Shown in pieces: positions 13,922-43,416 of a stretch of DNA of 56,434 nucleotides. The position numbers and the translations under genes are program-made. The stretch's first letter is position 1, and every line of letters starts with the position of its first letter. This DNA comes from Candidatus Staskawiczbacteria bacterium. Lineage in GTDB: Bacteria > Patescibacteriota > Minisyncoccia > Minisyncoccales > Staskawiczbacteraceae. The stretch spans positions 1-56,434 of the forward strand of contig CAIMWV010000010.1 in assembly GCA_903845295.1 (NCBI GenBank), read 5' to 3'. Below the pieces are notes generated by a model. The model searched no databases. It was not told where the DNA came from and worked only from the letters and a program-made list of their open reading frames with translations.

Positions 13922-15661
13922 TTATGCGACCTCGCTTTGATAACAACTTTCGCAGTAAACAATTTCCTGGCGGTCCGGAGCATATGAGGTTTCAATTTCT
14001 TTGCCGCATTTTGCACATTTCCGTGAAAATATTTTAATCGGATTCAGCTGTTTGAAACGCACCCTGTCGCGGCAAAGAGGACATTGGCGCGGGATTGGAA
14101 GATCCATCCGGCGGTAGAAATCAAGCTCCATTTTTACCAGCCTATAGTTTTTTCCGCAATCGTCGCATTTTAATATGCCGCCAAGAATCTCGTCTGTAAC
14201 GTCTTTAATATCATCTGCAAAAGAAACCGTTGCCGGTTCATACTCTTTTGCATCGGAATCCCGCCAAACATAGCCGTTGCTGACAGCTTCTTCCTTGGAA
14301 ATCGGGAAAAATTCATAAGCGCTTGTTTCATTATATGCCCACGGAGAAAATTCAGCCGGGAAATATTCTCCGTAACGATATTCTTTCTTCCGCGAATCAA
14401 TATAGGGCACTTCCATCATCTGTTTTTTAATCTTTCCCACCAAATCTTGATAGTCTTTCTTTGAGTATTGTTTATTTAAAATGCAATATTCTGAATTCCG
14501 AATTCCGACGCAGCCGAAAAGGTTTCCCGAGCCATGGCAAGCAAAACTATATTCCAAATCATGCGCATGGTAATTCCAAAAACTGAACTTGATATTATTA
14601 ACAGTAAGGCCGACCCACACCGATTCGTATATCAATTCAGAATTTTCTCCAAATATTGTATAGTCATAAGCGTCTTTCGATGGGCCCAATTTAAGAAGTT
14701 GGCCATATCGGATATTTTCTCCGTTACCTACCTGATAGGAATCGTGCACATTTTTTGAATTAAAAATATAGTCTCCGGTTACGTTTACATTTTTGCGCCC
14801 ATGGAATTGCCTGCGAGGATATTCAAGAAATAATTTTTCTGCTCTTGCCCTGAAATCATTTACGTTTTTCAATGACCCGAAATTCAATTCTTCAAGTTTT
14901 TTTGCGTATTCTTCCTTTGTGTAGGGTTGATTCAATATGTGATATTGCTTGTTACGCAAGTTAATACAGCCTATGCAATTGGAACAGCCTATGAGATCTC
15001 TTGAGAACCAAATGTCCTGTGAATCTTCGCAGTCTTGCGACCAAAACGCACGATAACACTTATTTGCCATCACAGCCTGGTAGCAAAGCTCGCTGTCATT
15101 TGTGAACGCCACGTCAAAACATTCTTTATTTTTTGCCATCGTGTTGGTATAGGCGCAATTTTCACTAAAATCACTTCTGAAGCAAAGGTAGCAATTTTTT
15201 AAATCCGCCGCGCCATTACACCAAGGGCTATTAATCATGGTCGTATGAGAAGTATAGAGGGTTGGATGAGGAACCTCGCGGAAAAGTTGAAGCCACTGTT
15301 CGAAAAATGATTTTTTAAAGTCGTATTCTTTGCCAAATGACTTTGGGTCCCATTCATCCGACCACCATTTTTCTTGCGAATAAATCTTATGCGGATTTCC
15401 CGGAGGATAAAACGTTATCCCCTCTTCCCCAGAATCAAATTTCTGGCGGTATAAAATTCTCCCGCTTGTCCACACGAAGCGCCGCATCATCCTGCACTCC
15501 GGACACCATGTGGGCGAAGGCACTTTCATCTTCTCGCAAAACGCAGAATCATCGGACTCAATCACGAACTCATTATTGCAGTTTTGGCATACTCGCACTG
15601 AGGACTTCGAGTGAGCCTCAGTCGAACTCCCTGCCGAAGTGTTTTTTGTATCGCTTTCCAT
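13922..15661 (-). CDS. Cys-rich zinc-ribbon/repeat family protein, array copy 13 (numbered in transcription order)
   Basis: CQNC..F.IE.DD..F.EK.KVP.PT.CPECR; LFGCVG...YCILNKQY; ends CAKC-x17-CESC-YQSEVA; nested REP in-frame near the N-terminus. Confidence 0.9.
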   Translation of the reverse strand: MESDTKNTSAGSSTEAHSKSSVRVCQNCNNEFVIESDDSAFCEKMKVPSPTWCPECRMMRRFVWTSGRILYRQKFDSGEEGITFYPPGNPHKIYSQEKWWSDEWDPKSFGKEYDFKKSFFEQWLQLFREVPHPTLYTSHTTMINSPWCNGAADLKNCYLCFRSDFSENCAYTNTMAKNKECFDVAFTNDSELCYQAVMANKCYRAFWSQDCEDSQDIWFSRDLIGCSNCIGCINLRNKQYHILNQPYTKEEYAKKLEELNFGSLKNVNDFRARAEKLFLEYPRRQFHGRKNVNVTGDYIFNSKNVHDSYQVGNGENIRYGQLLKLGPSKDAYDYTIFGENSELIYESVWVGLTVNNIKFSFWNYHAHDLEYSFACHGSGNLFGCVGIRNSEYCILNKQYSKKDYQDLVGKIKKQMMEVPYIDSRKKEYRYGEYFPAEFSPWAYNETSAYEFFPISKEEAVSNGYVWRDSDAKEYEPATVSFADDIKDVTDEILGGILKCDDCGKNYRLVKMELDFYRRMDLPIPRQCPLCRDRVRFKQLNPIKIFSRKCAKCGKEIETSYAPDRQEIVYCESCYQSEVA

Positions 15662-15664
15662 AAT

Positions 15665-16285
15665 TTACTTTTTATCCAAAAAATTAATTATCCGTTGTAT
15701 TTTTTTAACTTCCAGCGCATTTTTTTCTTCTCTTCCTTCTCTCCATGCTAGCCCAATTTTTTCTACCCATCCCTTCTTTTCTTCAATCAATAGGTTTGGT
15801 AACAAAACTTTCGCCTTAACTCCTAAGAATTCTTTTTCAATAGAAATATCATTATAATCACCCGCAAAACGGATTTCTTTGCCATGCATCGGAATTACTA
15901 CCTCCTTCGTCTTATCATCAAAAAAACTAATATGGATATCACAATGGGCAGCCCGTGTTGTTTCTGCGTCAATTGGATCAATTCTTAATAAATCATCCTC
16001 TCCATGCGCCTTGGATTTACAAACTAAGTGGCCTTCTTTTTCCAAAAAAATTTTTGCATCTCCAACGTTATCTCTATCGATTATGAAATCAACGTCTTTA
16101 TGATTCCTGGAAATATAACCCAGATAAGCGTCAACGGCAAAACCGGACAAAACAACATATTTCCAATTTTTTTCAGATGCCCGAATCACAATTCTCTTAA
16201 ACAAATCAATTGCCTTTTTAGTTCTTTCATCCATCTCCCCTTCAGCAAGCGGCGGGATTTCTTTTTTTAATAAATTATCGTTCAT
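15665..16285 (-). CDS. Nucleotidyltransferase, aminoglycoside-2''-adenylyltransferase/Lnu-like family
   Basis: SGFAVDAYLG..SR.HKDVDF motif and later DIH. Confidence 0.75.
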   Translation of the reverse strand: MNDNLLKKEIPPLAEGEMDERTKKAIDLFKRIVIRASEKNWKYVVLSGFAVDAYLGYISRNHKDVDFIIDRDNVGDAKIFLEKEGHLVCKSKAHGEDDLLRIDPIDAETTRAAHCDIHISFFDDKTKEVVIPMHGKEIRFAGDYNDISIEKEFLGVKAKVLLPNLLIEEKKGWVEKIGLAWREGREEKNALEVKKIQRIINFLDKK

Positions 16286-16296
16286 AAATTAATGGA

Positions 16297-16386: not shown

Positions 16387-16387
16387 T

Positions 16388-18133
16388 TTATGCCACCTCA
16401 CTATTGTAGCAACTTTTGCAATAAACGATTTCTGGCCTGTCCGGAGCATAAGAAGTTTCAAATTCATTTGGACACTTTTCTTCCCCATGAGAATGATTTT
16501 TCTGCTCGCACATACATTGGCGGTGCCAAAGCTTGATAGGCGTACGCTGGGCAATCCTGGCAAAATGGCGGCAGTTCGGGCACAGTTGCGGAACCGGGAT
16601 GCCCATGCGTTTGTAAAAATTCAGATCGCTCGACGTTACCTTAAAGGCTTCCGTGCATTGGTGGTTGCATTTTCCAGCGTGGGCGCACCCGATTGTTTCC
16701 TTTAAAATTTGTTCATCAACCTGGTCAATCGAGTCCGGAATGTTTTCTGCTTTTAAGGTGATTTTATAATTCTTAGCCGCGAAATCAACCCACCTGTATC
16801 CGTTTTTTAATGCCTCTTCTTTTGACATGGGGAAAAGCTCTTGAGCGATGGTTTCGTTATAGGCGAATCCGTGCATATCCAACGGGAAGGTTGAACCATA
16901 ACGGAATTCCCTTCCCAAAGAGTCTTTGTATGGAAGCGCATCCATTTGCTCTTTGATTCTCGGCACTAATTCTTCATATTCTTCTTTGCTGTATTGTTTA
17001 TTCAAAATGCAATACTGTTTTTTCCGCAAACCGACGCAGCCAAATAAATCAGATGAACTGTGGCAATTTACGCAGTATTGGGCGCGGATTAACTGGTCCC
17101 AACATTCATTTGAAAAAAACACCTGGCTGCACTGGCGGCCGATTGAGGAGCATTCATAAATAAGCTCTGAAAAAGCGGCCCAATATGTAAAATCCATCAC
17201 ATCTTTCCCATCGGTAATTCCAAAAAGATATTTGCCGTCTTCCACTCTTTCGCAATTAAATCCTACCTTCACATTTTTGCATTGCTCTAACCAATTACCC
17301 GAAACATCAGTGCTGTGATTTTCTACAAGACACGGCACGATGTGTTTTGATGAAAATTCTGCCATTTTTTTGCGCATTTCTTCTACTTCCTTGCGACTTT
17401 TTGGCCAAAGTGTTTTAATTTTATCTTTATATTCCTCTTTTGTATATTGCTCGTTGAAAATGCAATAATTCTTATTGCGCAAATTAACGCAACCAAAACA
17501 ATCAGTACAGTTTTTACAATTTAACAAAAAGGCGGAATTTGAGCAGGTACTACATTCTCTTGAATACATCAACCTGTTACAACCATAACAATCAATGCAC
17601 TCAAAACACAGTTCAGACGAATGAATATTATAGTTGTCCATACTATCTTTTGAATCCCAAATTGAAGTGCCGTAAGAACAATTTTCGTTCGTAGAGGCGG
17701 CAAAAATAAGATAACAGTTTTTGTTGTCGCTGGCCCTGTTGGTATATTCGCTGTTTACGTTTGTTCCTTGTTGAATAATTCCCATCCTTGGAACCTTAAG
17801 GAATAAATCTTTAAGCTGCTCGAAAAATGGTTTTTTAAAGTTATAGTCTTTCCCATAAGATTCAGGATCCCATTTGTCAGACCACCAGCAAGAATAGCAA
17901 TAAACAGTGTAGGGGCTTTCCGGCGAATAAAGCAAAATTTTTTCTTTACCGCACAGATTGCACTTTCTTTTAAAAAGAGACCTCTCGCCCCTCCACGCCA
18001 AACGTTTGACCAGCCTGCACTCCGGACACCACGTCGGTGGCGGCACTTTAATCTTCTCATAAAAATTAAAATCGTCGGGCTCAATCATGAACTCCTTTTT
18101 ACAGTTTTGACATGTTCTTTTTTGGCTTTCCAT
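16388..18133 (-). CDS. Cys-rich family protein, array copy 12
   Basis: Same conserved blocks; internal CNLC-x17-CYSC; ends YCKSCYNSEVA. Confidence 0.9.
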   Translation of the reverse strand: MESQKRTCQNCKKEFMIEPDDFNFYEKIKVPPPTWCPECRLVKRLAWRGERSLFKRKCNLCGKEKILLYSPESPYTVYCYSCWWSDKWDPESYGKDYNFKKPFFEQLKDLFLKVPRMGIIQQGTNVNSEYTNRASDNKNCYLIFAASTNENCSYGTSIWDSKDSMDNYNIHSSELCFECIDCYGCNRLMYSRECSTCSNSAFLLNCKNCTDCFGCVNLRNKNYCIFNEQYTKEEYKDKIKTLWPKSRKEVEEMRKKMAEFSSKHIVPCLVENHSTDVSGNWLEQCKNVKVGFNCERVEDGKYLFGITDGKDVMDFTYWAAFSELIYECSSIGRQCSQVFFSNECWDQLIRAQYCVNCHSSSDLFGCVGLRKKQYCILNKQYSKEEYEELVPRIKEQMDALPYKDSLGREFRYGSTFPLDMHGFAYNETIAQELFPMSKEEALKNGYRWVDFAAKNYKITLKAENIPDSIDQVDEQILKETIGCAHAGKCNHQCTEAFKVTSSDLNFYKRMGIPVPQLCPNCRHFARIAQRTPIKLWHRQCMCEQKNHSHGEEKCPNEFETSYAPDRPEIVYCKSCYNSEVA

Positions 18134-18171: not shown

Positions 18172-19857
18172 TTACGCTATTTCTGCATTGTAGCACTGTT
18201 CACAGTAAATTTTGAATTTCTTTTGACTTTCTGGTGAGTATGAGGTTTCTATGTGTTTACCACAATTGGCACATGCTCCCGCCCAAAGATTCCTTGGGTT
18301 TCGCGTCGCCATTCGTCCTGCATGCCTACAATTAAAACATTGCGATGGAAGTGGGAGTTTGTTTCTCTTATAAAAATTTACTTCTCGATTGATGAGTTTA
18401 AAATTTTTTTGGCAACTTGTACAAGCAAGTGTTTCATTCATAAGCTGATCGCTATATTCTTCCGGGTTTTTCGGTAAATTTTCATGTTCGATAGTTCCTT
18501 GTCCTTTTGTGCTAGGAATATCATCTTTCCATGTAAAGCCTTGGGCCAGAGCTTCTTCTTTGTTTAGTGGCATATACTCATTAACTATTGCTTCGTTATA
18601 ACCAAAAGGGCTTAATTCTTTTGGAAAAAATAATCCCCAATCGCTAGTCTTTTTCAAATTTTCAATGATTTTTTCTTTTAATTCTTCGTATTCTGCTTTA
18701 CTATATTGCTTGTTCAAAATGCAATAAGATTTTTTGCGAAGTCCATAGCACCCGAAAAGATTGTTGCAGTTATGACAATTATCCGAGTAGCAAACATCGT
18801 GTGAATCAACTATCTCGTGGGAACCAATAACCCTATTACTGTTTAGCATGGTCAAGACTTGATAACATTCTGACAAATCACCGGTAAAAGATACGTCGTA
18901 TGAATCTATTGCCTTTCTTACTGTAAAACAAAATTTAGAATCCTCTCCGCTTTTTATATCAAAAGAATAATGAACGTTATGTGCATTGTATATATGATTC
19001 CCAGAAACATTGTTGTTGTGCGAACCGAAGAAAGCGCGCTGGGGAATTTTTGTACGTAAAACATCTCGCTCTTTTAAAATATAATCTATACTTGATTTTT
19101 CTTTTAGCGGATACTTTGATAGAAAATTTTTGTACTCTTCTTTTGTAACTGGCTTATTAAAAATGTTGTAAGACTTATTTATTTGTCCTACACAACCAAT
19201 ACAATTTAAACAATTTCTACAATCAAAAAGTCCAATACTGTCTACGCAACTCTCGCACTCTTGCGAATAAAAAAGTTTCGATGATTCTAAGCAATCGACG
19301 CATTCGTAACAAGATTCTGATTTAAATAGGTATAGATTATCTACCGAATCTCGGCAATTCCAAACAATATGACCATAATCACAGTCTTCATCGTTTAGAC
19401 CACCGAAGATAAGATAGCAATTTTTGCTTTGATTGATTTGGTTTGCATACTCACAATTCTCGGTCTCGGAATTCATCACGTTAACGCGCGGAACTGTATT
19501 GGATAATCTGGCGAGTTGAGTAAAAAATGGCTTCTGGCTATCAAAATCAATCCCGTAAGTCATGGGGTCCCAGTCATCACTCCACCATTCAGATACACTA
19601 TAAACAGGAAAGAGTGCGTCGGGACCATACGCAGAGACAATCATGTCGCCAGATTTACTAGATGGCCTTTTATACAATGTTTTAAAATTTCTAAAAAGCA
19701 TACGCAACTGCTGACGGCATTGTGGACAAATTTCCGGCGCTGGGACTTTCATTTTTTCGTAGAAAGCAAAATCATCGGACTCAATTACGAAATCCTTTTT
19801 GCAGTTTTGGCAGACTCGCACTGAGCCTGCCGAAGTGTTTTTGGTTTCCGATTTCAT
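18172..19857 (-). CDS. Cys-rich family protein, array copy 11
   Basis: Family blocks; in-frame REP encoding TSAGSV at 19819-19837; ends YCEQCYNAEIA. Confidence 0.9.
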   Translation of the reverse strand: MKSETKNTSAGSVRVCQNCKKDFVIESDDFAFYEKMKVPAPEICPQCRQQLRMLFRNFKTLYKRPSSKSGDMIVSAYGPDALFPVYSVSEWWSDDWDPMTYGIDFDSQKPFFTQLARLSNTVPRVNVMNSETENCEYANQINQSKNCYLIFGGLNDEDCDYGHIVWNCRDSVDNLYLFKSESCYECVDCLESSKLFYSQECESCVDSIGLFDCRNCLNCIGCVGQINKSYNIFNKPVTKEEYKNFLSKYPLKEKSSIDYILKERDVLRTKIPQRAFFGSHNNNVSGNHIYNAHNVHYSFDIKSGEDSKFCFTVRKAIDSYDVSFTGDLSECYQVLTMLNSNRVIGSHEIVDSHDVCYSDNCHNCNNLFGCYGLRKKSYCILNKQYSKAEYEELKEKIIENLKKTSDWGLFFPKELSPFGYNEAIVNEYMPLNKEEALAQGFTWKDDIPSTKGQGTIEHENLPKNPEEYSDQLMNETLACTSCQKNFKLINREVNFYKRNKLPLPSQCFNCRHAGRMATRNPRNLWAGACANCGKHIETSYSPESQKKFKIYCEQCYNAEIA

Positions 19858-19860: not shown

Positions 19861-21615
19861 TTATACTACCTCGCTATTATAGCAACTTTCGCAGTAAATT
19901 ATTTCAGGACGTTCCGGCGCATACGGCGTTTCAAATTCATTCGCACAATTCGCACTGCCGTGAGAATGATTTTTCTTGTCGCACATGCATTTTCTGTGCC
20001 ATAGCTTAAGGGGGTTTCTTTGGGCGAGGCGTTCGTAGTGCCTGCAGTTGGGGCACATCCTTGGTAAGGGTAAGTTCGCCTTTCTGTAGAATTGCAGCTC
20101 TTCTTTGATTATTTTAAAGGCGGTGGTGCATTGGTGGTTGCACTCACCTTTGTGGCCACATCCTATTACCTTGCCGATAATATCATCGCCGACATCTTTG
20201 ATATGGTCCGGCAAGTCTTGCGATAGTATGTCTATTTTGTAGGTTTTCTCTTCCGGATCTTTCCAGCGATAACCTTGCGGCATGGCCTGTTCTTTGGTTA
20301 AGGGAAAGTACTCTTGGGCAATGGTTTCGTTGTAGGCAAAGGGGCTCAATTCTGAAGGGAAAAATTCGCCATATTTATAAACTCTTCCCTGCTTATCGAC
20401 ATACGGCATATCTGCCATCTGTTTTATAATTTTGGAAACCAGCTCCTCATATTTTTCTTTAGTGTATTGCTTGTTCAAAATGCAGTATTGCTTGCTTCGC
20501 AGTCCCGTGCAGCCAAAAAGATTCTGCGATCCCGTACAGTTTAGAGAATAAGAAACATTTGTGCTACCCTTGATAACCTGGCTGAACAGATAATAGGCGT
20601 TTTCGGTGGATTCAAAGCCAAGCGAAAGCGATTCGTACAGCATTTCACCGCGGCTTAAGCCATAAACATCATAAGAATCCTTCAGCCCGATGCCTATGTA
20701 GTGAGAGAAGGCGGAATTTTCGTAGTTATCTCCGGAAAAATCAAAGCACTCCTTGCAATTCTTTGAATTTTTAAGGTTATCCCCCGTAGATTGGGCTGTC
20801 TTAATCATCTGGGCATATTTGCGCAGCGCTCCTTTTCGGAGGTCGTTATACTTTTCAATGTGCTCTTGTAAAACCGCGTAGCTTCCTAAGTCAATCTGTT
20901 TCAGCTTTGAAAGATATTCCTCTTTGGAATAAGGCTGGTTAAACAGATAGTATTGCTTGCCCCGGAGGTTCACGCTGAAAGAGCAGTTCTGGCAATTCCT
21001 GCAGTCGAAAAGGAAATTTGAGTCTGTGCACGCATCGCAATACTGGGAATACTTCAAGTTGTACGAATTCTCGCATTGGACACACTGGTAGCAGCGCTCG
21101 TTACGCGTGCCGGTGTAACAATCAATGCTGTCTTTACACATGTAAATGCGGTTGGAATACAAGATGCCCTCGCTCTCCCTGCCAGCAATTTGCAAGTAGC
21201 AGTCTTTGGCCCCTGACATATAATTGCAGTAATCAGAATTGCTCGGCGTGGTATTAAAAAGCGCCATGGAAGGCGTGCGCTGCAGCAACTCCAAAAATTG
21301 GGTCATGAAGGGGCGGGAGAAATTATAAGCAACGCCTGCAGCCATGGGATCCCAGGAATCCGACCACCAGCAGTCTTGACAATAAACGACGAACGGCGAG
21401 TCGGCCGGATAAATCGAAACCATCTGCTTGCCGCACTGTGCACAATTCCGGCGGTACAGCGCCCGCTCATTTCTCCAAGTCATCCTGCGCTGGTTGCGGC
21501 ATTCTGGACAAAAAGTCGGCGGAGGCACTTTAATCTTCTCATAGAATGAAAAATCATCGGGCTCGATGATGAAGTCTTTTTTACAATTTTGGCAAATTTT
21601 GGTTTCTTGTTCCAT
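19861..21615 (-). CDS. Cys-rich family protein, array copy 10
   Basis: Family blocks; ends YCESCYNSEVV. Confidence 0.9.
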   Translation of the reverse strand: MEQETKICQNCKKDFIIEPDDFSFYEKIKVPPPTFCPECRNQRRMTWRNERALYRRNCAQCGKQMVSIYPADSPFVVYCQDCWWSDSWDPMAAGVAYNFSRPFMTQFLELLQRTPSMALFNTTPSNSDYCNYMSGAKDCYLQIAGRESEGILYSNRIYMCKDSIDCYTGTRNERCYQCVQCENSYNLKYSQYCDACTDSNFLFDCRNCQNCSFSVNLRGKQYYLFNQPYSKEEYLSKLKQIDLGSYAVLQEHIEKYNDLRKGALRKYAQMIKTAQSTGDNLKNSKNCKECFDFSGDNYENSAFSHYIGIGLKDSYDVYGLSRGEMLYESLSLGFESTENAYYLFSQVIKGSTNVSYSLNCTGSQNLFGCTGLRSKQYCILNKQYTKEKYEELVSKIIKQMADMPYVDKQGRVYKYGEFFPSELSPFAYNETIAQEYFPLTKEQAMPQGYRWKDPEEKTYKIDILSQDLPDHIKDVGDDIIGKVIGCGHKGECNHQCTTAFKIIKEELQFYRKANLPLPRMCPNCRHYERLAQRNPLKLWHRKCMCDKKNHSHGSANCANEFETPYAPERPEIIYCESCYNSEVV

Positions 21616-21665: not shown

Positions 21666-23381
21666 CTATGCGACCTCGCTGTTATAACACTGCTCGCAGT
21701 AAATTATTTCTTTACGATCTGGGGCATAGCTGGTTTCGAATTTATTGGGGCATCGTTCTGTATGATGCGGGTGATTTTTATCGCACATGCACTGGCGGTA
21801 CCAAAGCTTAACCGGGTTTCTCCAGGCAAACCTGCTGTAATGTCGGCAATTCTGACATATTCGGGGCAACGGAATATTAAGCTTTCTGTAAAACTGCAGT
21901 TCTTGGTTGGTGATTTTAAATACTCCTACACATTCGTGTGCGCATTCTCCTTCGTGAGCGCAGCTAATGACCTCTTTGGTGATGTTTTCATCAACATTGG
22001 CAATGTCATCGGACACATCAGCACTGGACATGGTTGCTTTAAATTGTTTCTCTTTGGAATCGCGCCAAACAAACCCCTTATTTTCAACTTCCTCTTTTGT
22101 GAGAGGAAAATGTTCATAGGCAAAGGATTCGTTGTAAGCCAAAGGACTCATCTCTACTGGGAAGAACTCTCCGTACTCCCCAGTTGATTTCATGTGCTCA
22201 ATAATTTTTGGAACTATCGCCTCGTATTCTTCTTTGGTATATTGTTTATTAAAAATGCAATATTGCTTGTTGCGCAAACTGATGCAACCGAATAGGTAAG
22301 AAGAATTCTGACAGATATAACAATATTGCAAATTGGCATTGGAAGGATAACAGAATGCGGAAAACGCCACGTTATACGCCCCATCGCCCACAACAAGCGA
22401 ATTATAAATTAATTCTGACCCGCTCCCAAAATTACTGTGATCATATGAATCTTTCGCAGGACCCAATGTAAAGTTTTGGCAGTATTTAACATTTTCGCCA
22501 CCAACAATTCTCCAGCAATTCTTAGCGTCTTTGGAATCAAAGATATAGTCTCCGGAAACATTGGCGTTATGACGGCCGTGAATAAATTTATTTGGAAACT
22601 GCGCCCAGTGCCCAATACTCTTCTCTCTTAAAGCTTCGACATTAGTCCTTGAAGTTACCCCAATCTCTTCTAATTTTTCGAGATACTCTTTTTTGGAATA
22701 AGGCTGATTAAATATGTGATAAGACTTATTTTTTAAATTAGCGCAGCCAAAACAATTATTGCAACCAACACAATTCTTGCAGAACATCGCCTCGCTGCAT
22801 CCTTCGCAATCTATAGAATACAGCGTTTTATAGCACTTGGTGATATTAACGCAGTCATAACAAAGCTCAGACTCGTTATAAATATGGCAGTCAAAAATAT
22901 CTTTGGATTTAGCTCCCCAAATAGAATATGCAGAATTCTCCACATATGAGATGCCGAAGCTAAGATAACAATCTTTAGGTTCAGTAGCATTAGCACAGTA
23001 ATCACTGTTCAGCGGCTTAGAAAGGTTCCTGGACATAAGAGGAACTTGCCTCATTAGTTCTTTAAACTGTTCAAAAAATGGACGTGAAAAATCATAATTT
23101 CGTCCGTATTGCAGCGGGTCCCAGGAATCTGAATACCACTCTGACACTTCCATTATTTTAACCGGAGAATCCTCATGAAACATAGAAAAAATTTCCTTGC
23201 CATGGATATCTTTTTTCCTCATGAGCTTCCACTCGTTGCGCCACGAAAACCGTCTTTGCATCCTGCACTCAGGGCACCATGTGGGCGGCGGTACTTTTAT
23301 TTTTTCATAAAACGCAAAATCATCGGGTTCGATGATGAACTCTTGTTTACAATTCTGGCACTGGCGCGTTTCTTGATCCAT
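21666..23381 (-). CDS. Cys-rich family protein, array copy 9 (start MDQETRQC)
   Basis: Start chosen by alignment with paralogs; followed by orphan tail YNSETA* at 21637-21657. Confidence 0.9.
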   Translation of the reverse strand: MDQETRQCQNCKQEFIIEPDDFAFYEKIKVPPPTWCPECRMQRRFSWRNEWKLMRKKDIHGKEIFSMFHEDSPVKIMEVSEWYSDSWDPLQYGRNYDFSRPFFEQFKELMRQVPLMSRNLSKPLNSDYCANATEPKDCYLSFGISYVENSAYSIWGAKSKDIFDCHIYNESELCYDCVNITKCYKTLYSIDCEGCSEAMFCKNCVGCNNCFGCANLKNKSYHIFNQPYSKKEYLEKLEEIGVTSRTNVEALREKSIGHWAQFPNKFIHGRHNANVSGDYIFDSKDAKNCWRIVGGENVKYCQNFTLGPAKDSYDHSNFGSGSELIYNSLVVGDGAYNVAFSAFCYPSNANLQYCYICQNSSYLFGCISLRNKQYCIFNKQYTKEEYEAIVPKIIEHMKSTGEYGEFFPVEMSPLAYNESFAYEHFPLTKEEVENKGFVWRDSKEKQFKATMSSADVSDDIANVDENITKEVISCAHEGECAHECVGVFKITNQELQFYRKLNIPLPRICQNCRHYSRFAWRNPVKLWYRQCMCDKNHPHHTERCPNKFETSYAPDRKEIIYCEQCYNSEVA

Positions 23382-32095: not shown

Positions 32096-32198
32096 CTTAC
32101 GCTATTTAGTTATATTTAATTATTTCTATCATAGCTTTTTCGCGCCTTTTTAGCAATACAAAATCGCAGGCGAATATGCCGCTTTATCCGGAAATTTT

Positions 32199-32507: not shown

Positions 32508-32540
32508 GTGATTTATATTAGTTAATAATTAAATTAATTC

Positions 32541-34532: not shown

Positions 34533-36265
34533 ACTACTTCGTTTAAATAACATTTCTCGCAAAAAATTTTAAATTGTTTTTGTTTTTCTTCGTCATAAAG
34601 CGAAAGGGATTTTTCACCGCAATTGGGGCAAACAAAAGGAAAAAGATCAAAAGGATGCTCAAAAAGAGCCCTTTCCATAATACGTTGCCAGGGGTGTTTA
34701 GTGGGAATTGGCAAATTCATGTGCCGATAGAATTTAAGCTCTTCAGCAATGATTTTAAAGGGCCGACCGGTTGTTTCACACCGGATAGCATCATTTAAAA
34801 TAGAGTCATCAACATTTTTAATATCGCTTGGAATTTCCTGGATGTCACGCAAATTGATTCCAGCTGGTATTTGTGACTCTGGTTCAAGATACCAAGGAAT
34901 GCCACGTTCAGCCGCCTCTTTTTCGCTAATCGGATAATATTTTTGACCCCTGCTTGCCTGATATGGGAAAAGTCCAAAAGAAAGAGAAAATAACTCTCCG
35001 TACTCGCCGTCATTAAGCATTCTTAGTTTAATTTCATCAACTAACGGCCAATAGTCGTTTTCAGAATAGGGCTTGTTAAAAATATGAAATTTTTTGTTTT
35101 TCAGCCCGACGCAAGCAAAACAATTTTGACAATTAGTGCACTCCGAAGAGTATTCAATCCCATTACTTGCCCGGATATAAAGACTGAAAAGAACATTGCT
35201 GCTGCCAGTGCCATTCACCACCTCATAGATTTTCTCGGCTTTATCGGCGTCATAGCAGGAATCCATTATATCTTTGACCCCCCCGAAGGTCTCTACAAAA
35301 CGAAGATTCTGCCCCTCGGGGCCGTCAAAGGCCCAAAAACAATCCTTGCAATTATTAAGCCCGTTGCCAACGCAGTTTATAGTATTGGTAAGCCACAAGG
35401 AACGATGCAGGGCATTTTTGTAAACGCCGTCAAAACGCCGGACAAGATCCTGGAAAACGACCCGATCGCCCAAGTTCAAGCCGGCGATTTTTGCCTGGTA
35501 GTCTTGCTTGCTTAATTGTTTATTCTCAAAAAAATAAGATTTGTTCCTGAGATTCGATGAAAGGAAACAATTATTACAATTTTTGCAATCATACAGGAAG
35601 GCTGAATCCAGGCATTGCACAGACCCGATGCTAAAAATGCAGTGGCTGCAACGGTCAGCGCCCACGCAGGAATAACAGAATTCACAATTCCAAACCCTGG
35701 AGCAGTCAACGCAGAATTTGGAGAATCTCACATCGTCACCATAAGAGCAGTCCTCGCTGTGGAAACCGCCGGAAAAATAGTAATTGTTTTTCCCCCAGCG
35801 GCCACCTACGGAATATTCCGAATTTATCGATGTGATATCCCTCTCGAGAGCCAGGTGCGGCACATTGAAAAATAGTTCTTTAAACTGTTCAAAAAATTTC
35901 CGGCCAGGGTTATATGAACGGCCGTATGATGTTGCTTCCCAGGAATCGGAGTACCAGTAATTAACATCGTAAACCTTGTGGGGCGATGAGGCCGGGAAAA
36001 TAGTAACAATATTCTCGTTGTGGCCGGGGGCCGAGCACGGCCGTTTAAAAAATTTCGGCGTACGCATCAGCAAACCGAACCGGCGGATTTTGCGGCACTT
36101 CGGGCATAGGGTCGGCGGCGGCACCCGGAACATGCGATAAAAATTGATATCCCCTGCCTCCACTTTGAATTTTTGCTTACATTCTAAACACACCCTCTCG
36201 TGGGGAACAAGGTCTTTTAAAATCTTATCAAGTGCTTCGTCAAATTTTGGTGTTTTGGAAATCAT
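34529..36265 (-). CDS. Cys-rich family protein, array copy 3 (divergent subtype; start MISKTPK)
   Basis: N-terminal extension, CLEC..F.VE..D..FY..F.VPPPT.CPKCR, CETTGRPF, PTKHP; ATGA overlap with copy 2. Confidence 0.88.
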   Translation of the reverse strand: MISKTPKFDEALDKILKDLVPHERVCLECKQKFKVEAGDINFYRMFRVPPPTLCPKCRKIRRFGLLMRTPKFFKRPCSAPGHNENIVTIFPASSPHKVYDVNYWYSDSWEATSYGRSYNPGRKFFEQFKELFFNVPHLALERDITSINSEYSVGGRWGKNNYYFSGGFHSEDCSYGDDVRFSKFCVDCSRVWNCEFCYSCVGADRCSHCIFSIGSVQCLDSAFLYDCKNCNNCFLSSNLRNKSYFFENKQLSKQDYQAKIAGLNLGDRVVFQDLVRRFDGVYKNALHRSLWLTNTINCVGNGLNNCKDCFWAFDGPEGQNLRFVETFGGVKDIMDSCYDADKAEKIYEVVNGTGSSNVLFSLYIRASNGIEYSSECTNCQNCFACVGLKNKKFHIFNKPYSENDYWPLVDEIKLRMLNDGEYGELFSLSFGLFPYQASRGQKYYPISEKEAAERGIPWYLEPESQIPAGINLRDIQEIPSDIKNVDDSILNDAIRCETTGRPFKIIAEELKFYRHMNLPIPTKHPWQRIMERALFEHPFDLFPFVCPNCGEKSLSLYDEEKQKQFKIFCEKCYLNEVV

Positions 36266-38052
36266 ATTACTTCCGCTTGATAACATTGTTCGCAGTAAAC
36301 TATTTCCGGGCGGTCCGGAGCATAAGAAGTTTCAAATTCGTTTGGGCATTTTCCGCTATGGTGTGGGTGGTTGTTTGCCTGTGGTGAGCTTGTCGAACCA
36401 TCGCACATGCACTTTCTGTGCCACAGATGCACAGGATTCCTTAATTTTGTTCTTTCAAAATGGCGAGAGTTAAAACATCTTTGCGGAAGCGAAATATTCA
36501 TTCTCTTATAAAAAGCTAATTCTTCGGGAGTGATTTTGAAAGCTTTCGAACAATTATGCTCAAGCGCTTTTTCTTCGCCCTCCTCGTCCCAAGACCTGCA
36601 AAGAACAACCTCTTTTAAAATCGAATCTTTCACGCCTTCAAGATTAGCAGGAATATCCTTCCATGACATTGTATGATTATATTCTTTGCTCGTCATATCA
36701 CGCCAAGAAAATCCTGCCTCAATCGCTCCTTTTTTAGTAAAAGGGAGGTATTCTTGCGCAATTGTTTCGTTATAGCCATGCGGGCAAAATTCGGGCGGGA
36801 AAAACTCGCCGTATTTATACACCCTGCCTTTTGCATCAACGTAGGGCATGTCGTCCATATGTTTTTTGATTTTAGGGACAAGGGCTTCGTATTCTTTTTT
36901 GGTGTACTGCTTGTTTAAAATACAATACTCTTTATTCCTCATTCCAATGCATCCAAATAAATTGTGCGCTTCGTGGCAAAAGATCGAATATTCAATATTT
37001 CTTACAGATGTATATACAAATGCCGAAAATTTTATATTTGAAGCCTCAATAGCCACCGTAAGCCCTTCATATATAAGTTCGACGCCATCACCAGGGTAAG
37101 AATAATCATAACAATCCTTGGCGCCGGGCGGGAACACTACGTTCTGGCAATATCTAACATTTTCAGCATTTGAAACGCGAAATGAATTACGCGTTTCTTT
37201 TGCGTGGTAAATGTAATCTCCTGACACGTTTGAGGTGTGGCGCGCATGAATGTATTTAACCGGCACTGACAGCTTAAATTTATTGAACTCTGCTTTTGCT
37301 TTTTCCAAGCCATCAATGGAACTGAGATTAAACGACTTTATTTTATCTTTATATTCTTCTTTGGAATATGGTTTATTGAAAATGTGATAATTTTTGTTCC
37401 TCAACCCGGCGCATCCAAAGCAGTTTGAGCACCCGGCGCAATCTTGGCACAAAATTAACTCTTGCGAATTATCGCAATCTACGCAACACATAAGCTTATA
37501 AGATTTATTTACAAGAAAACATTCATAGCAAAGTTCACAATCGCTGACAAACAGGCAATCTGCGCAATTCTTTGAATTGTCTAAACCAACACTATATAAG
37601 CAGTCCTCGTCTGTATTGCCGTGAAAAACCAAATAACAATTCTTAACAGATCTGCAGCCTATATAGTAATCGCTGTTTATATTATTTACCGCGCTTCTGC
37701 TCGGTAGCGGAACTTCATGGAGCAATTCTTTGACTTGGGTCAGAAAAGGACGAGAAAAATCAATTTCTTTGCCATACTTTAGAGAATCCCAGTTGTCAGA
37801 CCACCAATAATCTCTTTCGTAAACTTTAACCGGAGCATCGGGAGCAAATGCTGAAAATATTAACTGGCCCGTGGCATCACACTTGCGCTTATATAGGGTT
37901 TTTTCATTTCTCCAAGTTATTCTCCGGCGTAATCTACAATCAGGGCACCACGTGGGTGGCGGAACTTTCATTTTTTCATAAAACGCAAAATCATCGGGCT
38001 CGATGACAAAGTCCTTTTTGCAATTTTGGCATTGTTTGGTTTCTGATTGCAT
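36262..38052 (-). CDS. Cys-rich family protein, array copy 2 (start MQSETK)
   Basis: Family blocks; in-frame REP encoding GSTSSP at 36382-36400. Confidence 0.9.
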   Translation of the reverse strand: MQSETKQCQNCKKDFVIEPDDFAFYEKMKVPPPTWCPDCRLRRRITWRNEKTLYKRKCDATGQLIFSAFAPDAPVKVYERDYWWSDNWDSLKYGKEIDFSRPFLTQVKELLHEVPLPSRSAVNNINSDYYIGCRSVKNCYLVFHGNTDEDCLYSVGLDNSKNCADCLFVSDCELCYECFLVNKSYKLMCCVDCDNSQELILCQDCAGCSNCFGCAGLRNKNYHIFNKPYSKEEYKDKIKSFNLSSIDGLEKAKAEFNKFKLSVPVKYIHARHTSNVSGDYIYHAKETRNSFRVSNAENVRYCQNVVFPPGAKDCYDYSYPGDGVELIYEGLTVAIEASNIKFSAFVYTSVRNIEYSIFCHEAHNLFGCIGMRNKEYCILNKQYTKKEYEALVPKIKKHMDDMPYVDAKGRVYKYGEFFPPEFCPHGYNETIAQEYLPFTKKGAIEAGFSWRDMTSKEYNHTMSWKDIPANLEGVKDSILKEVVLCRSWDEEGEEKALEHNCSKAFKITPEELAFYKRMNISLPQRCFNSRHFERTKLRNPVHLWHRKCMCDGSTSSPQANNHPHHSGKCPNEFETSYAPDRPEIVYCEQCYQAEVI

Positions 38053-38057: not shown

Positions 38058-39833
38058 TTAAATTACTTCTTCTTGGTAGCACTGCTCGCAGTAGATAATT
38101 TCTTCGCGACCCGGAGCATATGGAGTTTCAAACTCATTTGGACAATGCCCATCGCCGTGAGAATGTTTTGTGGTGTTTTGATAAACTCCATTCTCTGATT
38201 TTTGTCCGGCACACTGGCATTTTCGATGATATAGCTTTAGTGGATTTCTTTGCGCCAAACGCTCGTAGTGCCTGCAGTTGGGGCACAATCTTGGCAAGGG
38301 CAGATTCATTTTTCTGTAGAATTGAAGTTCGTCTTTGATGATTTTGAATGCGGTTGTACACTGATGCACACACTTACCTTCGTGCGCACAGCTTATTACT
38401 TCGTTTAAAATCGAATCAGAAATGTCTTTGATATCGTCAAGTAAATCTAAATAAGAAACGTCCGGCTTATAATCCTTGGTTTCTGGATCTCTCCATGTAT
38501 AACCTCTCTTTAAAATCTCATCCCTTGTGAGTGGAAAATATTCCTGCGCAATTGTCTCATTATATGCAAACGGGCTAATCTCGGGCGGGAAAAATTCTCC
38601 ATATTTGTATACCCGGCCTTTTACATCGATATATGGCGTTTCGTTCATGTGCTCGATAATTTTGGGGACAAGAGCTTCGTATTCTTCCTTAGTATATTGT
38701 TTATTTAAGATGCAATATTTTTTGTTTCGGAGTCCGACGCATCCGAAAAGATTCGAGGAATTATGGCAACAATATGTATATTGCGTATCATGGCAAACAT
38801 GGGTAAACACGGCAAAACAGCAATGTGACGCCTGAACGCCTGTATCTATAAGCTCATACATCAAGTTTGCGTTGCCGCCAAAACCGTATCCGTCATAAAT
38901 ATCCTTGCCTTGCCAGCCGTGCATATCGAATTTAGAATCTTCTGTTTCGCCAAACACATCAAAGCATTCGTGCACATTCTTTGAACTCATAATATTATCG
39001 CCAGTCGAGTTTGTCGATCTTATAATTGAGGCGAACCGCCGCGGGAATTTTTTCGAAAACTCGCTAAATTTTTCTCGCAACGCCGTAAGACTCTTATAAC
39101 TCCCCAAATTCAATTTTTCGATTTCTTTTTTATAGTCCTCTTTAGAATATGGCATATTCCATATGTGGTAAGACTTGTTTCTCAAATTCACGCACCCGAA
39201 ACAATTATTCGCATTCGCGCACGAACGCAGAAAATATGACCCCAGGCTGTTGTCAGAATCATACGCAAAAAACACTTTGGATAAATTCGCGCTTATTACG
39301 TCCTCGTAACATTGCTCCCCGTCCTCCATAATATAAAGATCCATCGAATCCTTACATCTCAATGCGCCATTAGAATAATGTGTGTTTTCGTTGGTAAACG
39401 ACGCATACGTAAGATAGCAATCCTTCATATCAGCATTATGGTTGCCATACTCGCTATTCCTTACGTTGTTGTTTGCTAAGTTTGGAAGCGGAGCTAATTC
39501 AAATAATTCTTTAAACTGCTTAAAAAACGTTTTTGAAAAGTCATAATCGCGGCCGGATTTAAGCTGGTCCCATTTGTCTGACCACCAATAGTCTCTTTCA
39601 TAAACGACAAGGGGTTGCTCTGGTGCGAACATTGTAATAATATCCTTGCCGGTAGCGTCGCACTTTCTATGGTAAAGAGTGCGCTCATTTCTCCAACTCA
39701 TACGCCGGATAATTCTGCACTCCGGGCAAAACGTCGGAGGGAGCACCTTCATCTTCTCATAAAAATCAAAATCCTCGGGCTCGATAGTGAACTCGTTTTT
39801 ACAATTTTGGCATTGTTTGGTCTCTTTCAACAT
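38058..39833 (-). CDS. Cys-rich family protein, array copy 1 (start MLKETK)
   Basis: Family blocks; ends YCEQCYQEEVI. Confidence 0.9.
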   Translation of the reverse strand: MLKETKQCQNCKNEFTIEPEDFDFYEKMKVLPPTFCPECRIIRRMSWRNERTLYHRKCDATGKDIITMFAPEQPLVVYERDYWWSDKWDQLKSGRDYDFSKTFFKQFKELFELAPLPNLANNNVRNSEYGNHNADMKDCYLTYASFTNENTHYSNGALRCKDSMDLYIMEDGEQCYEDVISANLSKVFFAYDSDNSLGSYFLRSCANANNCFGCVNLRNKSYHIWNMPYSKEDYKKEIEKLNLGSYKSLTALREKFSEFSKKFPRRFASIIRSTNSTGDNIMSSKNVHECFDVFGETEDSKFDMHGWQGKDIYDGYGFGGNANLMYELIDTGVQASHCCFAVFTHVCHDTQYTYCCHNSSNLFGCVGLRNKKYCILNKQYTKEEYEALVPKIIEHMNETPYIDVKGRVYKYGEFFPPEISPFAYNETIAQEYFPLTRDEILKRGYTWRDPETKDYKPDVSYLDLLDDIKDISDSILNEVISCAHEGKCVHQCTTAFKIIKDELQFYRKMNLPLPRLCPNCRHYERLAQRNPLKLYHRKCQCAGQKSENGVYQNTTKHSHGDGHCPNEFETPYAPGREEIIYCEQCYQEEVI

Positions 39834-39895: not shown

Positions 39896-39904
39896 ATTTC
39901 CTAC

Positions 39905-41908: not shown

Positions 41909-41925
41909 AAATATATTAAAGCATA

Positions 41926-43416
41926 TTATTCCTCAACCGGCAAATTAGCTGGCGGACCGGCTTTCTTTGATTCAATCTTGACCATGGTTGGCGCCACCAT
42001 CCCAGACACTCTTAACGGGAAGTGCCATAGCGTTGCCATTTCTTCTGTACTTAAAATTGGGCACAAATCATGCCTGTTTGGATAAAGCGGGGGAAATCTT
42101 AAAACAGCCATCCTAAACATTTTTCTGGCTCTCAGGAATACTCTCCTGTTTCTCCAAAAAAAGTGGACTCTCGGCCTTGTTGAGCCCTGGAATCTCCACT
42201 CATTCATATTGGCAGTTAAAAAATGACCCATATACGTACGCGTTATAACTCTGTTGGCCGCCCTCCAATGTTCTCTTTTGGCAACATAAACTCCTCTTAT
42301 ATTTGTCCTAAACGCGGGCTTCTTCATTTTATTTTCAATTTCAGTGATAATCTCCCTTTCTCCCGGAGTCAGCGAAATTTGCCGCTCGCCTGTTTCTTCA
42401 TCCTCTTCAGATGCCCAAGAATACGACGCTGATTCTCCTTCGCCTTCTTTTTCCGGACCCATGGCAAGTTCTCGCGCAACGCTTGCTAAATCTTGCACGA
42501 GCGTAGGCTCTTTCTTCTCCGGACGCTTTGCTAATTTATTAATTATTTTAACTCCTTCTTTTTTCCAATCCGGCTCGTCATAATCTCCAACCGGCACCGT
42601 GGTAAACTGCACCCAGTAATGTTCTCCGGGGCCTAATTTAGACATTGCTTCCAATAAAGAAATTATCGGGTCAAGTCTTTTTTCTTCAGCTGCAATTCTT
42701 TCGCCCTGCGGTTCAAAAAACTTTTCGTATGTCCGCATGGGATAGGCATCCTCTTTGAAGAAATCCCAATCTTCGCCGTACATATCCCATTCTTCGTTTG
42801 GAACTGTCGGGGGCACTAATTTTACATAATCTGTGGCTTCGTGAATTTCAATATCGGGATAGTGGCCGTAAAGCGCAGACTCAATTGAGGTTCTGTGCTG
42901 CTGCAAAGCTCTTACATAGTAATGTATATTGCCCTCAATGCTGGCAATTTCCCAAGAGCACCAAAATGGCCCGTTGCCTAATTCTCCATCGCACCACCTT
43001 TCGCGGAAGTTTCCCACATCCATAAGCGGCCAGATAGCTGCAAACACGTCTTCCATGGCTTTGAGGGGCATAAGCATCGCTTCGAGCGGGATGACTTCTA
43101 ATAAGACCCATTTATGTTTGGCATAATCAAAATCCCAGTTAAGCCACCAGAGATAGAGTGTTTTTAGCTGCTCCATCAGCATTAATGGCAAAAATAGCCA
43201 CCACCAAACTCTCAAAAATGGAACCCATAAAATAATTATAAGCAAGATTACCCACCAAAAGGGATCCCAGACAATTTTTTTTACCTGTTCCCACCAGAAT
43301 GGATCTGGGATCAATACAATAGCCAGGGGCACAAGCACCCACCAAAATAAATAAGGAGGCAATAAAAGAGTCAAAACCAGGATTATCCACCTGAATGCAT
43401 GCGAGGACTGTTTCAT
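41926..43416 (-). CDS. Membrane-anchored hypothetical protein adjacent to the ATPases
   Basis: Trp-rich N-terminal TMs; SWEIAS..G.I.YY; YPD.EI.E..DY; LSTEE.ATLWHFP; PP.NLP. Confidence 0.8.
   Translation of the reverse strand: MKQSSHAFRWIILVLTLLLPPYLFWWVLVPLAIVLIPDPFWWEQVKKIVWDPFWWVILLIIILWVPFLRVWWWLFLPLMLMEQLKTLYLWWLNWDFDYAKHKWVLLEVIPLEAMLMPLKAMEDVFAAIWPLMDVGNFRERWCDGELGNGPFWCSWEIASIEGNIHYYVRALQQHRTSIESALYGHYPDIEIHEATDYVKLVPPTVPNEEWDMYGEDWDFFKEDAYPMRTYEKFFEPQGERIAAEEKRLDPIISLLEAMSKLGPGEHYWVQFTTVPVGDYDEPDWKKEGVKIINKLAKRPEKKEPTLVQDLASVARELAMGPEKEGEGESASYSWASEEDEETGERQISLTPGEREIITEIENKMKKPAFRTNIRGVYVAKREHWRAANRVITRTYMGHFLTANMNEWRFQGSTRPRVHFFWRNRRVFLRARKMFRMAVLRFPPLYPNRHDLCPILSTEEMATLWHFPLRVSGMVAPTMVKIESKKAGPPANLPVEE

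Follow-up and report, generated by a model that had tools for sequence, protein, structure and literature searches.

We describe an array of 13 paralogous, cysteine-rich protein genes interleaved with two genes for ATPases of the VirD4/TrwB class in a Candidatus Staskawiczbacteria bacterium (Patescibacteriota; assembly GCA_903845295.1). The window, i.e., the whole stretch of DNA analyzed, is the entire contig C10 (CAIMWV010000010.1; 56,434 nucleotides), and the genome (G000) comprises 778,986 bases in 35 contigs at 95% completeness. All genes named in the array lie on the minus strand, from position 43685 down to 13922, in the order TM90, TM496, ATPase 1, P1-P4, cutA, ATPase 2, P5-P12, a nucleotidyltransferase gene and P13, where P1-P13 are the paralogs and TM90 and TM496 are membrane proteins. 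The paralogs and the ATPases very probably form one functional system, and the reading that we favor, with a probability of about 0.5, is that the paralogs would serve the ATPases as clients, either as substrates or as specificity adaptors. These results suggest a motor of the coupling type whose clients would be a repertoire of paralogs from an uncharacterized protein family. Neither the family nor the cassette was found described in the literature searched, supplementary tables being outside that search.

Paralogs co-occur with a dedicated ATPase

The layout of the array is conserved among relatives. In 8/8 related arrays (seven congeners and G029, a member of another family), TM496 is followed by ATPase 1, one to seven paralogs, optionally cutA, ATPase 2, and one to eight further paralogs. 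A class-wide draw of 300 other genomes was also scored, with at most four candidates per genome and with ATPase-2-type genes defined by E ≤ 1e-150. An ATPase-2-type gene was found in 33 of the 36 paralog-bearing genomes vs. 8 of the 264 paralog-free ones, and by hand tally its distance to a scored paralog is at most 1 kb in at least 17 of these 33 genomes and at most 2 kb in at least 20. In the sample of the genus and order, the corresponding fractions are 12/17 and 0/23. Furthermore, among 79 diverse loci that carry family members, the ATPase family is the commonest neighbor of the paralogs (27 loci). The sequence-only reading had named paralogs that are usually unlinked to the ATPases elsewhere as one refutation; given the co-occurrence, the synteny and the neighbor ranking, it is not refuted.

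An insertion beside a conserved trio

An ATPase-1-type gene is present in 41/41 genomes of the order sample, with or without paralogs. In the four paralog-free genomes compared (congeners G015 and G017, and G028 and G036 of other families), the gene order is invariably SecD-SecF-Sigma70_r4+HARE-HTH-(TM90)-TM496-ATP1-PGK-DHH. Because this order equals that of the window flanks, positions 13663-39904 (about 26 kb, from the ATPase 1 stop to the pgk start) are an insertion relative to these genomes. TM90, TM496 and the ATPase-1-type gene thus constitute a conserved trio in a housekeeping context, and the paralog-specific parts are ATPase 2, cutA and a distinct subtype of ATPase 1. The earlier reading is supported in part and needs amending: the trio is found in paralog-free genomes as well, and the nucleotidyltransferase is in none of the eight related arrays.

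A tree of the motor domain was built from 72 BLAST matches of at least 330 amino acids (aa), using the matched motor region only (this and the other trees were built with FastTree or a quick IQ-TREE run). The ATPase 1 sequences fall into two clades, each with 99% local support. One holds 14 sequences, all from paralog-free genomes (seven congeners and seven genomes from other families), and the other, here called ATP1*, with 23 sequences, is confined to paralog-bearing genomes (11 congeners, G029 and 11 distant loci); all 30 ATPase 2 sequences form a third clade. Forcing the 18 ATPase 1 sequences of the own genus together costs 311.85 log-likelihood units (P = 5e-42, approximately unbiased test). 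Thus, the ATPase 1 subtype follows the presence of paralogs and not taxonomy. TM496 tracks taxonomy, with 55-62% identity in paralog-free congeners and 39% in G029, where ATPase 1 is 76% identical. ATP1*, ATPase 2, cutA and the paralogs are thus inherited or exchanged together, and they occupy the slot of the resident ATPase. Horizontal replacement may have brought this about, or else an ancient paralogy followed by differential loss.

These patterns bear on the alternative that the linkage is a matter of history, with tandem expansion beside a duplicated ATPase gene and no functional interplay. Tandem duplication naturally yields arrays, and for 52 of the 79 sampled loci the flanks fetched around the paralogs contain no ATPase gene, a number of these contigs being short. 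Against it stand co-occurrence in no fewer than 10 families of the class, an ATPase 1 subtype that tracks the paralogs against taxonomy, and an adjacency that is kept despite reshuffled paralog order and content, and we consider it highly unlikely.

Organization of the locus

The genes of the array are as follows.

43413 to 43685, minus strand: TM90, small membrane protein of 90 aa with two to three hydrophobic segments; overlaps TM496 by 4 nucleotides (nt); part of the core trio, not of the accessory cassette
41926 to 43416, minus strand: TM496, transmembrane (TM)-anchored protein with hydrophobic segments within residues 7-80 and about 400 soluble residues
39905 to 41908, minus strand: ATPase 1, 667 aa, P-loop motor of the TrwB/VirD4/TraD class with a zf_Tbcl_2 finger, ATP1* subtype
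38058 to 39833, minus strand: P1; longest open reading frame (ORF) to 39866
36262 to 38052, minus strand: P2; longest ORF to 38082
34529 to 36286, minus strand: P3, divergent, with the longest branch of the tree; part of the C-terminal Cys/His cluster absent
32814 to 34532, minus strand: P4; longest ORF to 34562; ATGA-type overlap with P3
32199 to 32507, minus strand: cutA, 102 aa, CutA1 family (PF03091); cassette component
30488 to 31948, minus strand: ATPase 2, 486 aa from M50; longest ORF to 32095; the most paralog-specific partner
28734 to 30467, minus strand: P5, with 42 Cys
26959 to 28623, minus strand: P6; C-terminal fingers degenerate; single-copy subfamily in 8/9 tree genomes
25174 to 26955, minus strand: P7, from the full-length alignment and the genome profile search
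23387 to 25168, minus strand: P8; longest ORF to 25198
21666 to 23381, minus strand: P9; longest ORF to 23420
19861 to 21615, minus strand: P10, the residue-numbering reference for the family
18172 to 19857, minus strand: P11, from the full-length alignment and the genome profile search
16388 to 18133, minus strand: P12, with 41 Cys
15665 to 16285, minus strand: nucleotidyltransferase, 206 aa, distantly ANT(2'')/Lnu-like (PF10706); passenger in the array
13922 to 15661, minus strand: P13; C-terminal finger at the zf_Tbcl_2 gathering score

The sequence-only reading had described TM genes, ATPases, paralogs and cutA as lying tightly packed on one strand, with 13 intact and divergent paralogs that fill about 23 kb, and this description is borne out. 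Order and strand are as it stated, and the paralogs sum to 22,650 nt, which amounts to 2.9% of an assembly of 778,986 bases. Several paralogs probably begin 10-13 codons inside the longest ORF, and spacing was measured from the conserved start M..ETK.CQNC. With this start, six junctions between genes have gaps of 3-5 nt, and TM90/TM496 and P3/P4 overlap by 4 nt in the ATGA manner. Longer gaps separate P4 from cutA (306 nt, 32508-32813) and cutA from ATPase 2 (250 nt, 31949-32198), and from these two gaps a minimum of two transcription units is predicted. A scan of the window for promoter-like sites (45 vs. 43.3 expected) and terminator-like sites (30 vs. 20.3 ± 4) was uninformative.

The two motor ATPases

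By their Pfam domains, both ATPases are assigned to the TrwB/VirD4 superfamily, and on the same sequence evidence they fail two defining features of type IV coupling proteins (T4CPs), namely a TM anchor of their own and the curated equivalog scores. Like the T4CPs TrwB of R388, VirD4 and TraD, they have a P-loop motor with Walker A and B motifs and three Pfam domains above the gathering score: TrwB_AAD_bind (57.0 bits, E = 2.1e-15, in ATPase 1 and 33.9 bits in ATPase 2; cut-off 20.5), TraG-D_C (25.9 and 26.2 bits; cut-off 22) and T4SS-DNA_transf, whose gathering score is passed by both. Walker A reads GKTGTGKT in ATPase 1 and GKSGVGKS in ATPase 2, and Walker B reads FYLYVDE in both; in ATPase 1 they lie at residues 35 and 278, respectively. 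The differences from T4CPs are several. A hydrophobicity scan found no TM segment in either ATPase, so that an N-terminal anchor is missing, and the separate TM496 is upstream of ATPase 1 only. The NCBIfam models for T4CPs score far below their cut-offs (TIGR03743, 53.7 vs. 366 bits; conju_CD1115, 43.7 vs. 250), and the genes are not beside virB4 or, no search having been aimed at it, a relaxase gene. The earlier designation as VirD4/TraD-like ATPases is borne out by the Pfam domains and Walker motifs. An ordinary conjugative element was considered and rejected: the window has no relaxase, integrase or VirB genes, with no search having been aimed at relaxases, and its flanks are housekeeping genes.

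The two ATPases also differ from each other. ATPase 1 has an internal zinc finger, which matches zf_Tbcl_2 at residues 464-497 (48.9 bits vs. a cut-off of 27; E = 5.1e-13), and a low-complexity tail. ATPase 2, 49% identical to ATPase 1, is a dedicated soluble paralog with a nearly invariant APPPPELP motif near its N terminus and a conserved EPLI at its C-terminal end. Its start is most likely M50 (coordinate 31948), as 29 orthologs of 482-588 aa align from there. When the ATPase 2 profile was compared with PDB, TrwB was the sole solved relative (1e9r, 1gl6; E = 6e-4, P-loop region).

Two further genes of the genome were noted in the course of this work. A third VirD4-like ATPase (826 aa), extended at its N terminus by about 390 aa, is encoded on contig C27 (L003:8797-11277, plus strand) downstream of two MacB/FtsX permease genes; almost every genome of the order sample has this type, which shows no linkage to the paralogs. 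On contig C25 (6652-6753, minus strand), a 65-aa ORF encodes a finger that stands alone and shares 48% identity with the zf_Tbcl_2 finger of ATPase 1.

A family of multi-finger repeat proteins

Aligned over their whole length, the 13 intact paralogs (554-606 aa) share 34-54% identity with the first of them, and a whole-genome profile search returned exactly these 13 copies and no others in the 779-kb genome. No Pfam or NCBIfam family covers the protein, the matches being limited to small finger models, and a PDB sequence search with the family profile gave no match below E = 0.5. A search for longer homologs found no foreign domain fused to the family; the longest homolog (1727 aa) is probably three fused copies. 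In a protein atlas that includes the homolog P0024, the clusters are named exclusively "hypothetical" or "putative zinc-binding." A Med15_N match in 19 of 61 family members (best E = 0.003) was taken as spurious. As remarked upon earlier, there is no signal peptide, and no paralog has a hydrophobic segment (Kyte-Doolittle, 19-residue window, threshold 1.6). Their cysteine content is 4.7-7.3%.

Each paralog has a treble-clef finger and a CxxC-x17-CxxC finger at either end and two Cys-rich repeat modules between them. In P10, residues 3-58 are homologous to about 481-544 (hhalign probability 98.9, E = 1.4e-17), a duplication of the finger, and the Cys-rich module at about 121-240 is homologous to that at about 272-395 (profile-profile probability 99.9, E = 7e-32). 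A further CxxC-x17-CxxC, following the N-terminal finger, was read directly from the alignment in the Cys-rich members. Domains of this type bind zinc in small proteins of Methanosarcina mazei by inductively coupled plasma mass spectrometry, according to the available text of PMC12704099. Within the first repeat module, Cys-Cys spacings number 280, 179, 207, 216 and 199 at lags of 3, 6, 9, 12 and 15, respectively, and at most 5 at any other lag. Such spacing in multiples of three is the mark of a very regular repeat, for which a solenoid fold may be guessed.

The fingers at the ends resemble known models to different degrees. The C-terminal finger of P13 reaches 27.0 bits with zf_Tbcl_2 (PF23477; TIGR04272), equal to the cut-off of 27. 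As 11/61 family members match this model at E ≤ 1, most paralogs are taken to carry a divergent copy. The N-terminal finger matches zf_Tbcl (PF13451) in 29/61 members at E ≤ 1 (best 1.2e-4); the gathering score is not reached (P13, 17.8 bits vs. a cut-off of 24), and the match is one of resemblance, not membership. The likeness to the zf_Tbcl/zf_Tbcl_2 fingers thus lies in the zf_Tbcl_2 matches of both the paralog C termini and ATPase 1. It differs in extent, as these modules of 35-50 aa make up about a quarter of a paralog and are silent on the architecture of 580 aa.

Conservation is concentrated at the ends. Among the 61 sequences, E582 (P10 numbering) is invariant, and the C-terminal CxxC and the finger cysteines, C557, C575 and C578 included, vary little or not at all. 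The ending xE[VI][AVI] is common to all 13 copies. The mean pairwise identity is 0.6-0.7 in the termini vs. 0.21-0.30 in the two repeat cores. P6 lacks several of the C-terminal finger cysteines, yet its subfamily is the best conserved between genomes (one copy each in eight genomes); P6 may hold a fixed role unlike that of the variable members.

Zinc-ribbon and treble-clef modules are commonly nucleic-acid binders, and each paralog has four of them at its termini. One may therefore ask whether the proteins are cytoplasmic sensors or adaptors that load an ATPase pumping DNA or RNA, in defense against phages and mobile DNA or in the processing of DNA taken up. The absence of export signals would fit, TrwB-class motors do translocate DNA, and patchiness, copy-number variation and cassette-like exchange are typical of defense genes. 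The ATPases also have weak matches in PADLOC-DB 2.0, to mad8 of MADS (9.3e-14 and 6.4e-12) and to HerA models (1.4e-7). This is as far as the likeness to MADS and to the complexes of HerA with its effectors goes: no Sir2, nuclease or methylase partner is found, the cassette has no nuclease or other effector domain, and no PADLOC model matches the paralogs, TM496, TM90 or cutA. The flanks are housekeeping genes and no defense island, and to our knowledge no defense system has a dozen paralogous sensors. Searches of mobile elements gave a single contig-end fragment among the IMG/VR viral contigs and no family match among the PLSDB plasmids, and hence no sign of a phage counter-system. A role in handling nucleic acids in the cytoplasm is on balance unlikely.

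Partner genes and the chaperone neighborhood

TM496 has no family in the copies of Pfam and NCBIfam searched and no match among PDB sequences. Its 792 homologs are all named "hypothetical," and many carry the precomputed tag PF26449.1. This model is absent from the Pfam copy searched, which finds nothing on the tagged homologs, and the accession was not found in the literature searched; a more recent Pfam release may already define the family. As TM496 is upstream of the ATPase-1-type gene in 8/8 paralog-bearing and 4/4 paralog-free relatives, it is likely the membrane partner of ATPase 1. In G015 and G017, two congeners without paralogs, a TM90 homolog is encoded upstream of TM496.

Upstream of TM496-ATPase 1, about 1.3 kb from TM90 (window 44984-46012, minus strand), lies the gene for a 342-aa protein that has Sigma70_r4 and HARE-HTH domains. 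Its homolog is directly upstream of TM90/TM496 in 4/4 paralog-free relatives, and likewise in locus L083. The protein may regulate the trio or be an RNA polymerase accessory factor.

The cutA product matches PF03091 (49.6 bits vs. a cut-off of 22.4; E = 3.5e-13) and falls below the NCBIfam equivalog cut-off (48.7 vs. 120). cutA is present in seven of the eight related arrays, immediately upstream of ATPase 2 in six of them, and also in five distant loci, and it belongs to the cassette. The nucleotidyltransferase (PF10706, 24.6 bits vs. a cut-off of 21; NCBIfam far below the cut-offs) is a passenger and no conserved part of the array; it is inserted between P12 and P13 in this genome only, with 0/8 related arrays having it.

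In 12 Nomurabacteria-like loci (L008, L018, L019, L023, L029, L031, L043, L057, L063, L066, L068 and L072), the module lies on one strand in or beside a dnaK...dnaJ region. dnaJ is present in 11 of the 12, directly after the ATPase 2 gene (ATP2) in 10, dnaK in seven, and both in six. Examples are "DnaK. ATP1 P P ATP2 DnaJ" (L018), "DnaK ATP1 P. P ATP2 DnaJ" (L043) and "ATP1 P P. ATP2 DnaJ" (L029). In L083 and L013, DnaK or DnaJ is encoded a few genes upstream of TM496-ATP2-paralogs. The 12 loci probably represent one lineage, as they share CysRS, AI-2E transporter, arginase and L21 neighbors. On this gene order, a link of the module to chaperones is possible.

CutA, the cysteine content and the chaperone genes together raise the question of metal handling or proteostasis, i.e., zinc buffering or storage with CutA, or holdases or clients linked to chaperones, the connection with the ATPases being secondary. 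The conservation of cutA and the dnaK...dnaJ context would speak for it, as would nine further loci with DnaK or DnaJ nearby, of which L013 and L083 also hold ATPase 2. Against it, neither dnaK nor dnaJ is within the window, and the dnaK/dnaJ loci are probably of a single lineage. Storage would leave unexplained both a conserved architecture of 580 aa and old, separately maintained subfamilies, and nothing in the scheme accounts for two dedicated motor ATPases. We consider this role very unlikely.

Size, distribution and evolution of the family

The family is large and patchily distributed. A word-indexed search gave 7992 of 8000 candidates at E ≤ 1e-3, all with source names of "hypothetical," and an exhaustive profile search of 1.84 billion cluster representatives (50% identity) gave 5378 at E ≤ 1e-3 and 2350 at E ≤ 1e-30. 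The record titles of the 79 fetched loci name Giovannoni-, Nomura-, Sungii-, Staskawicz-, Lipton-, Wolfe- and Niyogibacteria. Within the own genus, 16 of 24 other genomes have 3-23 family matches and eight have none, so that the copy-number variation proposed as a check was indeed found (0 to 23 matches within one genus). In the order sample the family is present in one of 16 other families, and in the even, class-wide draw of 300 genomes it is present in 36, over at least 11 families, and absent from 264. Members on contigs titled as Burkholderiales, Bacteroidales and Gammaproteobacteria metagenome-assembled genomes (L029, L052 and L073) are probably mis-binned and not transfers, as L029 has a full Patescibacteria-type neighborhood.

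The paralog tree comprises 62 copies from nine genomes (3 of the 65 detected ORFs, shorter than 500 aa, were left out) and mixes the genomes completely, the 13 copies of G000 requiring 13 changes. This suggests that the subfamilies are older than the species and that each genome retains a different subset. The clade of P6 type has eight members with end branches of 0.12-0.22 and is single-copy in eight of nine genomes, the exception being G029. Between orthologs, the nonsynonymous distance (dN) is 0.11-0.28 for paralogs vs. 0.031 for ATPase 2. The ratio omega is 0.03-0.16 where defined, the synonymous distance being saturated or undefined in most pairs; it therefore indicates no more than maintenance of the copies. 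At the nucleotide level, repeats shared by the paralogs are 60-84% identical, and as there are no long near-identical tracts, there is no sign of recent gene conversion.

Proposed mechanism

On these grounds we propose that positions 13663-39904 and ATPase 1 make up an accessory cassette specific to Patescibacteria, which would consist of two hexameric-motor ATPases of the VirD4/TrwB class without TM segments, CutA, and variable multi-zinc-finger repeat proteins of about 580 aa. The paralogs would be the clients of the motors, as substrates or as specificity adaptors. The motors would recognize the shared termini, i.e., both types of finger (treble-clef and CxxC-x17-CxxC) together with the invariant xE[VI]x tail, and the divergent Cys-rich core of each paralog would set its specificity for a target or cargo. 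TM496 and TM90, encoded by genes of their own, would anchor ATP1* to the membrane in trans, and ATPase 2 with CutA might act as a soluble station that serves the repertoire. Physical binding, the end recognized and the fate of the clients are thus predicted features of the model.

The client reading draws on several kinds of observation made on the genomes, namely genomic co-inheritance, domain architecture, the pattern of conservation and the structure of the insertion. It is supported by the zf_Tbcl_2 finger type common to ATPase 1 and the paralog C termini, by the conserved synteny, the co-occurrence and the neighbor ranking, by the ATP1* clade and the insertion, by conserved termini with variable cores, and by the maintained orthologs.

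Several points weigh against it. Related genomes are not independent samples, and the counts are therefore given without P-values. Three paralog-bearing genomes of the class draw (G056, G289 and G330) have no ATPase-2-type gene, nor have five of the genus and order sample (G006, G007, G009, G020 and G023; completeness 83-95%); of these, G009 is 95% complete and has seven family matches with an adjacent ATPase 1 gene. Conversely, five paralog-free genomes (G049, G088, G141, G181 and G244) carry ATPase 2 at 62-74% identity; in the other three (G045, G235 and G295) the identity is merely 50-53%. The many sampled loci without an ATPase in their flanks count here as well. The finger is not specific to paralog-bearing genomes, as ATPase-1-type genes with the same finger are present in all 41 genomes of the order sample. 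The group forced together in the tree test was chosen after the first tree had been seen, though it equals the genus label, and the estimates of selection are weak.

A special case of the client reading is that of an export repertoire, in which the VirD4-like ATPases would hand variable effectors or surface proteins to a type IV secretion system (T4SS), which would deliver them into the host bacterium or display them towards it, the repertoire tuning the host range. In keeping with it are the T4CP class of the motors, the VirB4-like gene with pilin-like neighbors in the genome, the patchy, accessory distribution (0-23 matches per genome in one genus), and the combination of conserved termini and variable cores, which would be expected if diverse cargo shared a translocation signal. 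According to the available text of PMC12102498, Patescibacteria have about two VirD4-like ATPase genes per genome, of unknown function; 5,713 such genes in 2,918 genomes include 148 near virB4, and exaptation "cannot be ruled out." The T4SS of Saccharibacteria is essential for epibiotic growth, is encoded by a cluster without a recognizable coupling protein, and "may instead export proteins"; the available texts name no T4SS cargo for Saccharibacteria (PMC10633639; review PMC12857230).

The absence of VirB channel genes, noted earlier, is true of the window and not of the genome, in which a VirB4-like ATPase (600 aa, P-loop_TraG) is encoded on contig C15 (L004:9761-16561, plus strand), followed by proteins of 1223 and 395 aa that match T4SS_pilin weakly. 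Of the 301 class genomes, 292 have the VirB4 type (53-86% identity in the rows listed), with or without paralogs; it cannot discriminate and lends no specific support. Other points are unfavorable to export. The paralogs have neither a signal peptide nor a recognized T4SS signal domain, transport would presumably require the unfolding of several tightly folded zinc modules in each of them, and ATPase 2 lacks a TM anchor and, in the genus, a membrane partner of its own. The family is absent from 264/300 genomes of the class draw, a t4cp homolog is reported as non-essential in S. epibionticum (PMC12102498, available text), and orthologs are under purifying, not arms-race, selection where measurable. 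That the clients would leave the cell through a T4SS encoded elsewhere in the genome, and with it the export repertoire as a whole, is therefore put forward as a tentative and rather doubtful extension of the client reading.

Resemblance to known systems

For the client reading, the closest known arrangement is that of the Bartonella VirB/VirD4-Bep locus, in which a T4CP gene reportedly stands beside tandem paralogous effectors with a common C-terminal signal domain. Both have a coupling-type ATPase gene within a tandem array of paralogs that are conserved at their ends and variable elsewhere, and the repertoire differs between related genomes. The present array differs in having no BID domain and no positive tail; its proteins have zinc-finger ends and an acidic-hydrophobic xE[VI]x tail. 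It further has two ATPases and CutA and belongs to a monoderm bacterium of the epibiont type, and the likeness is a genomic one. A second resemblance, in concept, is to the coupling complex of the Legionella Dot/Icm system, composed of DotL, DotM, the zinc-binding DotN and the IcmS/IcmW/LvgA adaptors, in which accessory proteins, zinc-binding ones among them, select the clients of a motor of the T4CP class. No sequence similarity to it was detected in the Pfam, NCBIfam and PDB searches, and the accessory family here numbers 13 large paralogs per genome.

Other features of the window

Three consecutive short ORFs of 153, 279 and 149 aa lie at 51165-52889 on the minus strand. The 279-aa ORF has a partial N-terminal domain of UDP-glucose/GDP-mannose dehydrogenase (from profile position 73) and the central domain, and the region suggests a gene that is split or frameshifted, or else an error of assembly. 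RNase P RNA of class A is at 7265-7623 (minus strand, 110.1 bits), and three tRNA genes (Asp-GTC and two Met-CAT) are at 906-1453 (minus strand), of which Rfam lists two only. The DNA runs (n = 4) are all from a single freshwater-sediment study.

Significance

With these results, two subtypes of orphan VirD4-like ATPases are tied to a very large unannotated protein family, of which a genome may hold up to 23 gene copies; the genome described here is below 0.8 Mb. Orphan coupling proteins thereby gain concrete, testable partners, and the presence or absence of the cassette can be compared with host range or habitat. A more far-reaching possibility, which we regard as rather unlikely, is that ultrasmall episymbionts would exchange the cassette horizontally as a module for interaction with their hosts. 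In this view ATP1* would overwrite the resident ATPase, the cassette would also bring a second, soluble motor, CutA and a shuffled repertoire of zinc-stabilized solenoids, and these would be threaded through the T4SS, which otherwise lacks substrates, into host bacteria, each paralog addressing a different host target. If true, the paralogs would be the first candidate family of T4SS cargo in the Candidate Phyla Radiation. If the paralogs are instead cytoplasmic, they would still belong to an undescribed system of motors and zinc-finger proteins, in a phylum rich in genes of unknown function.

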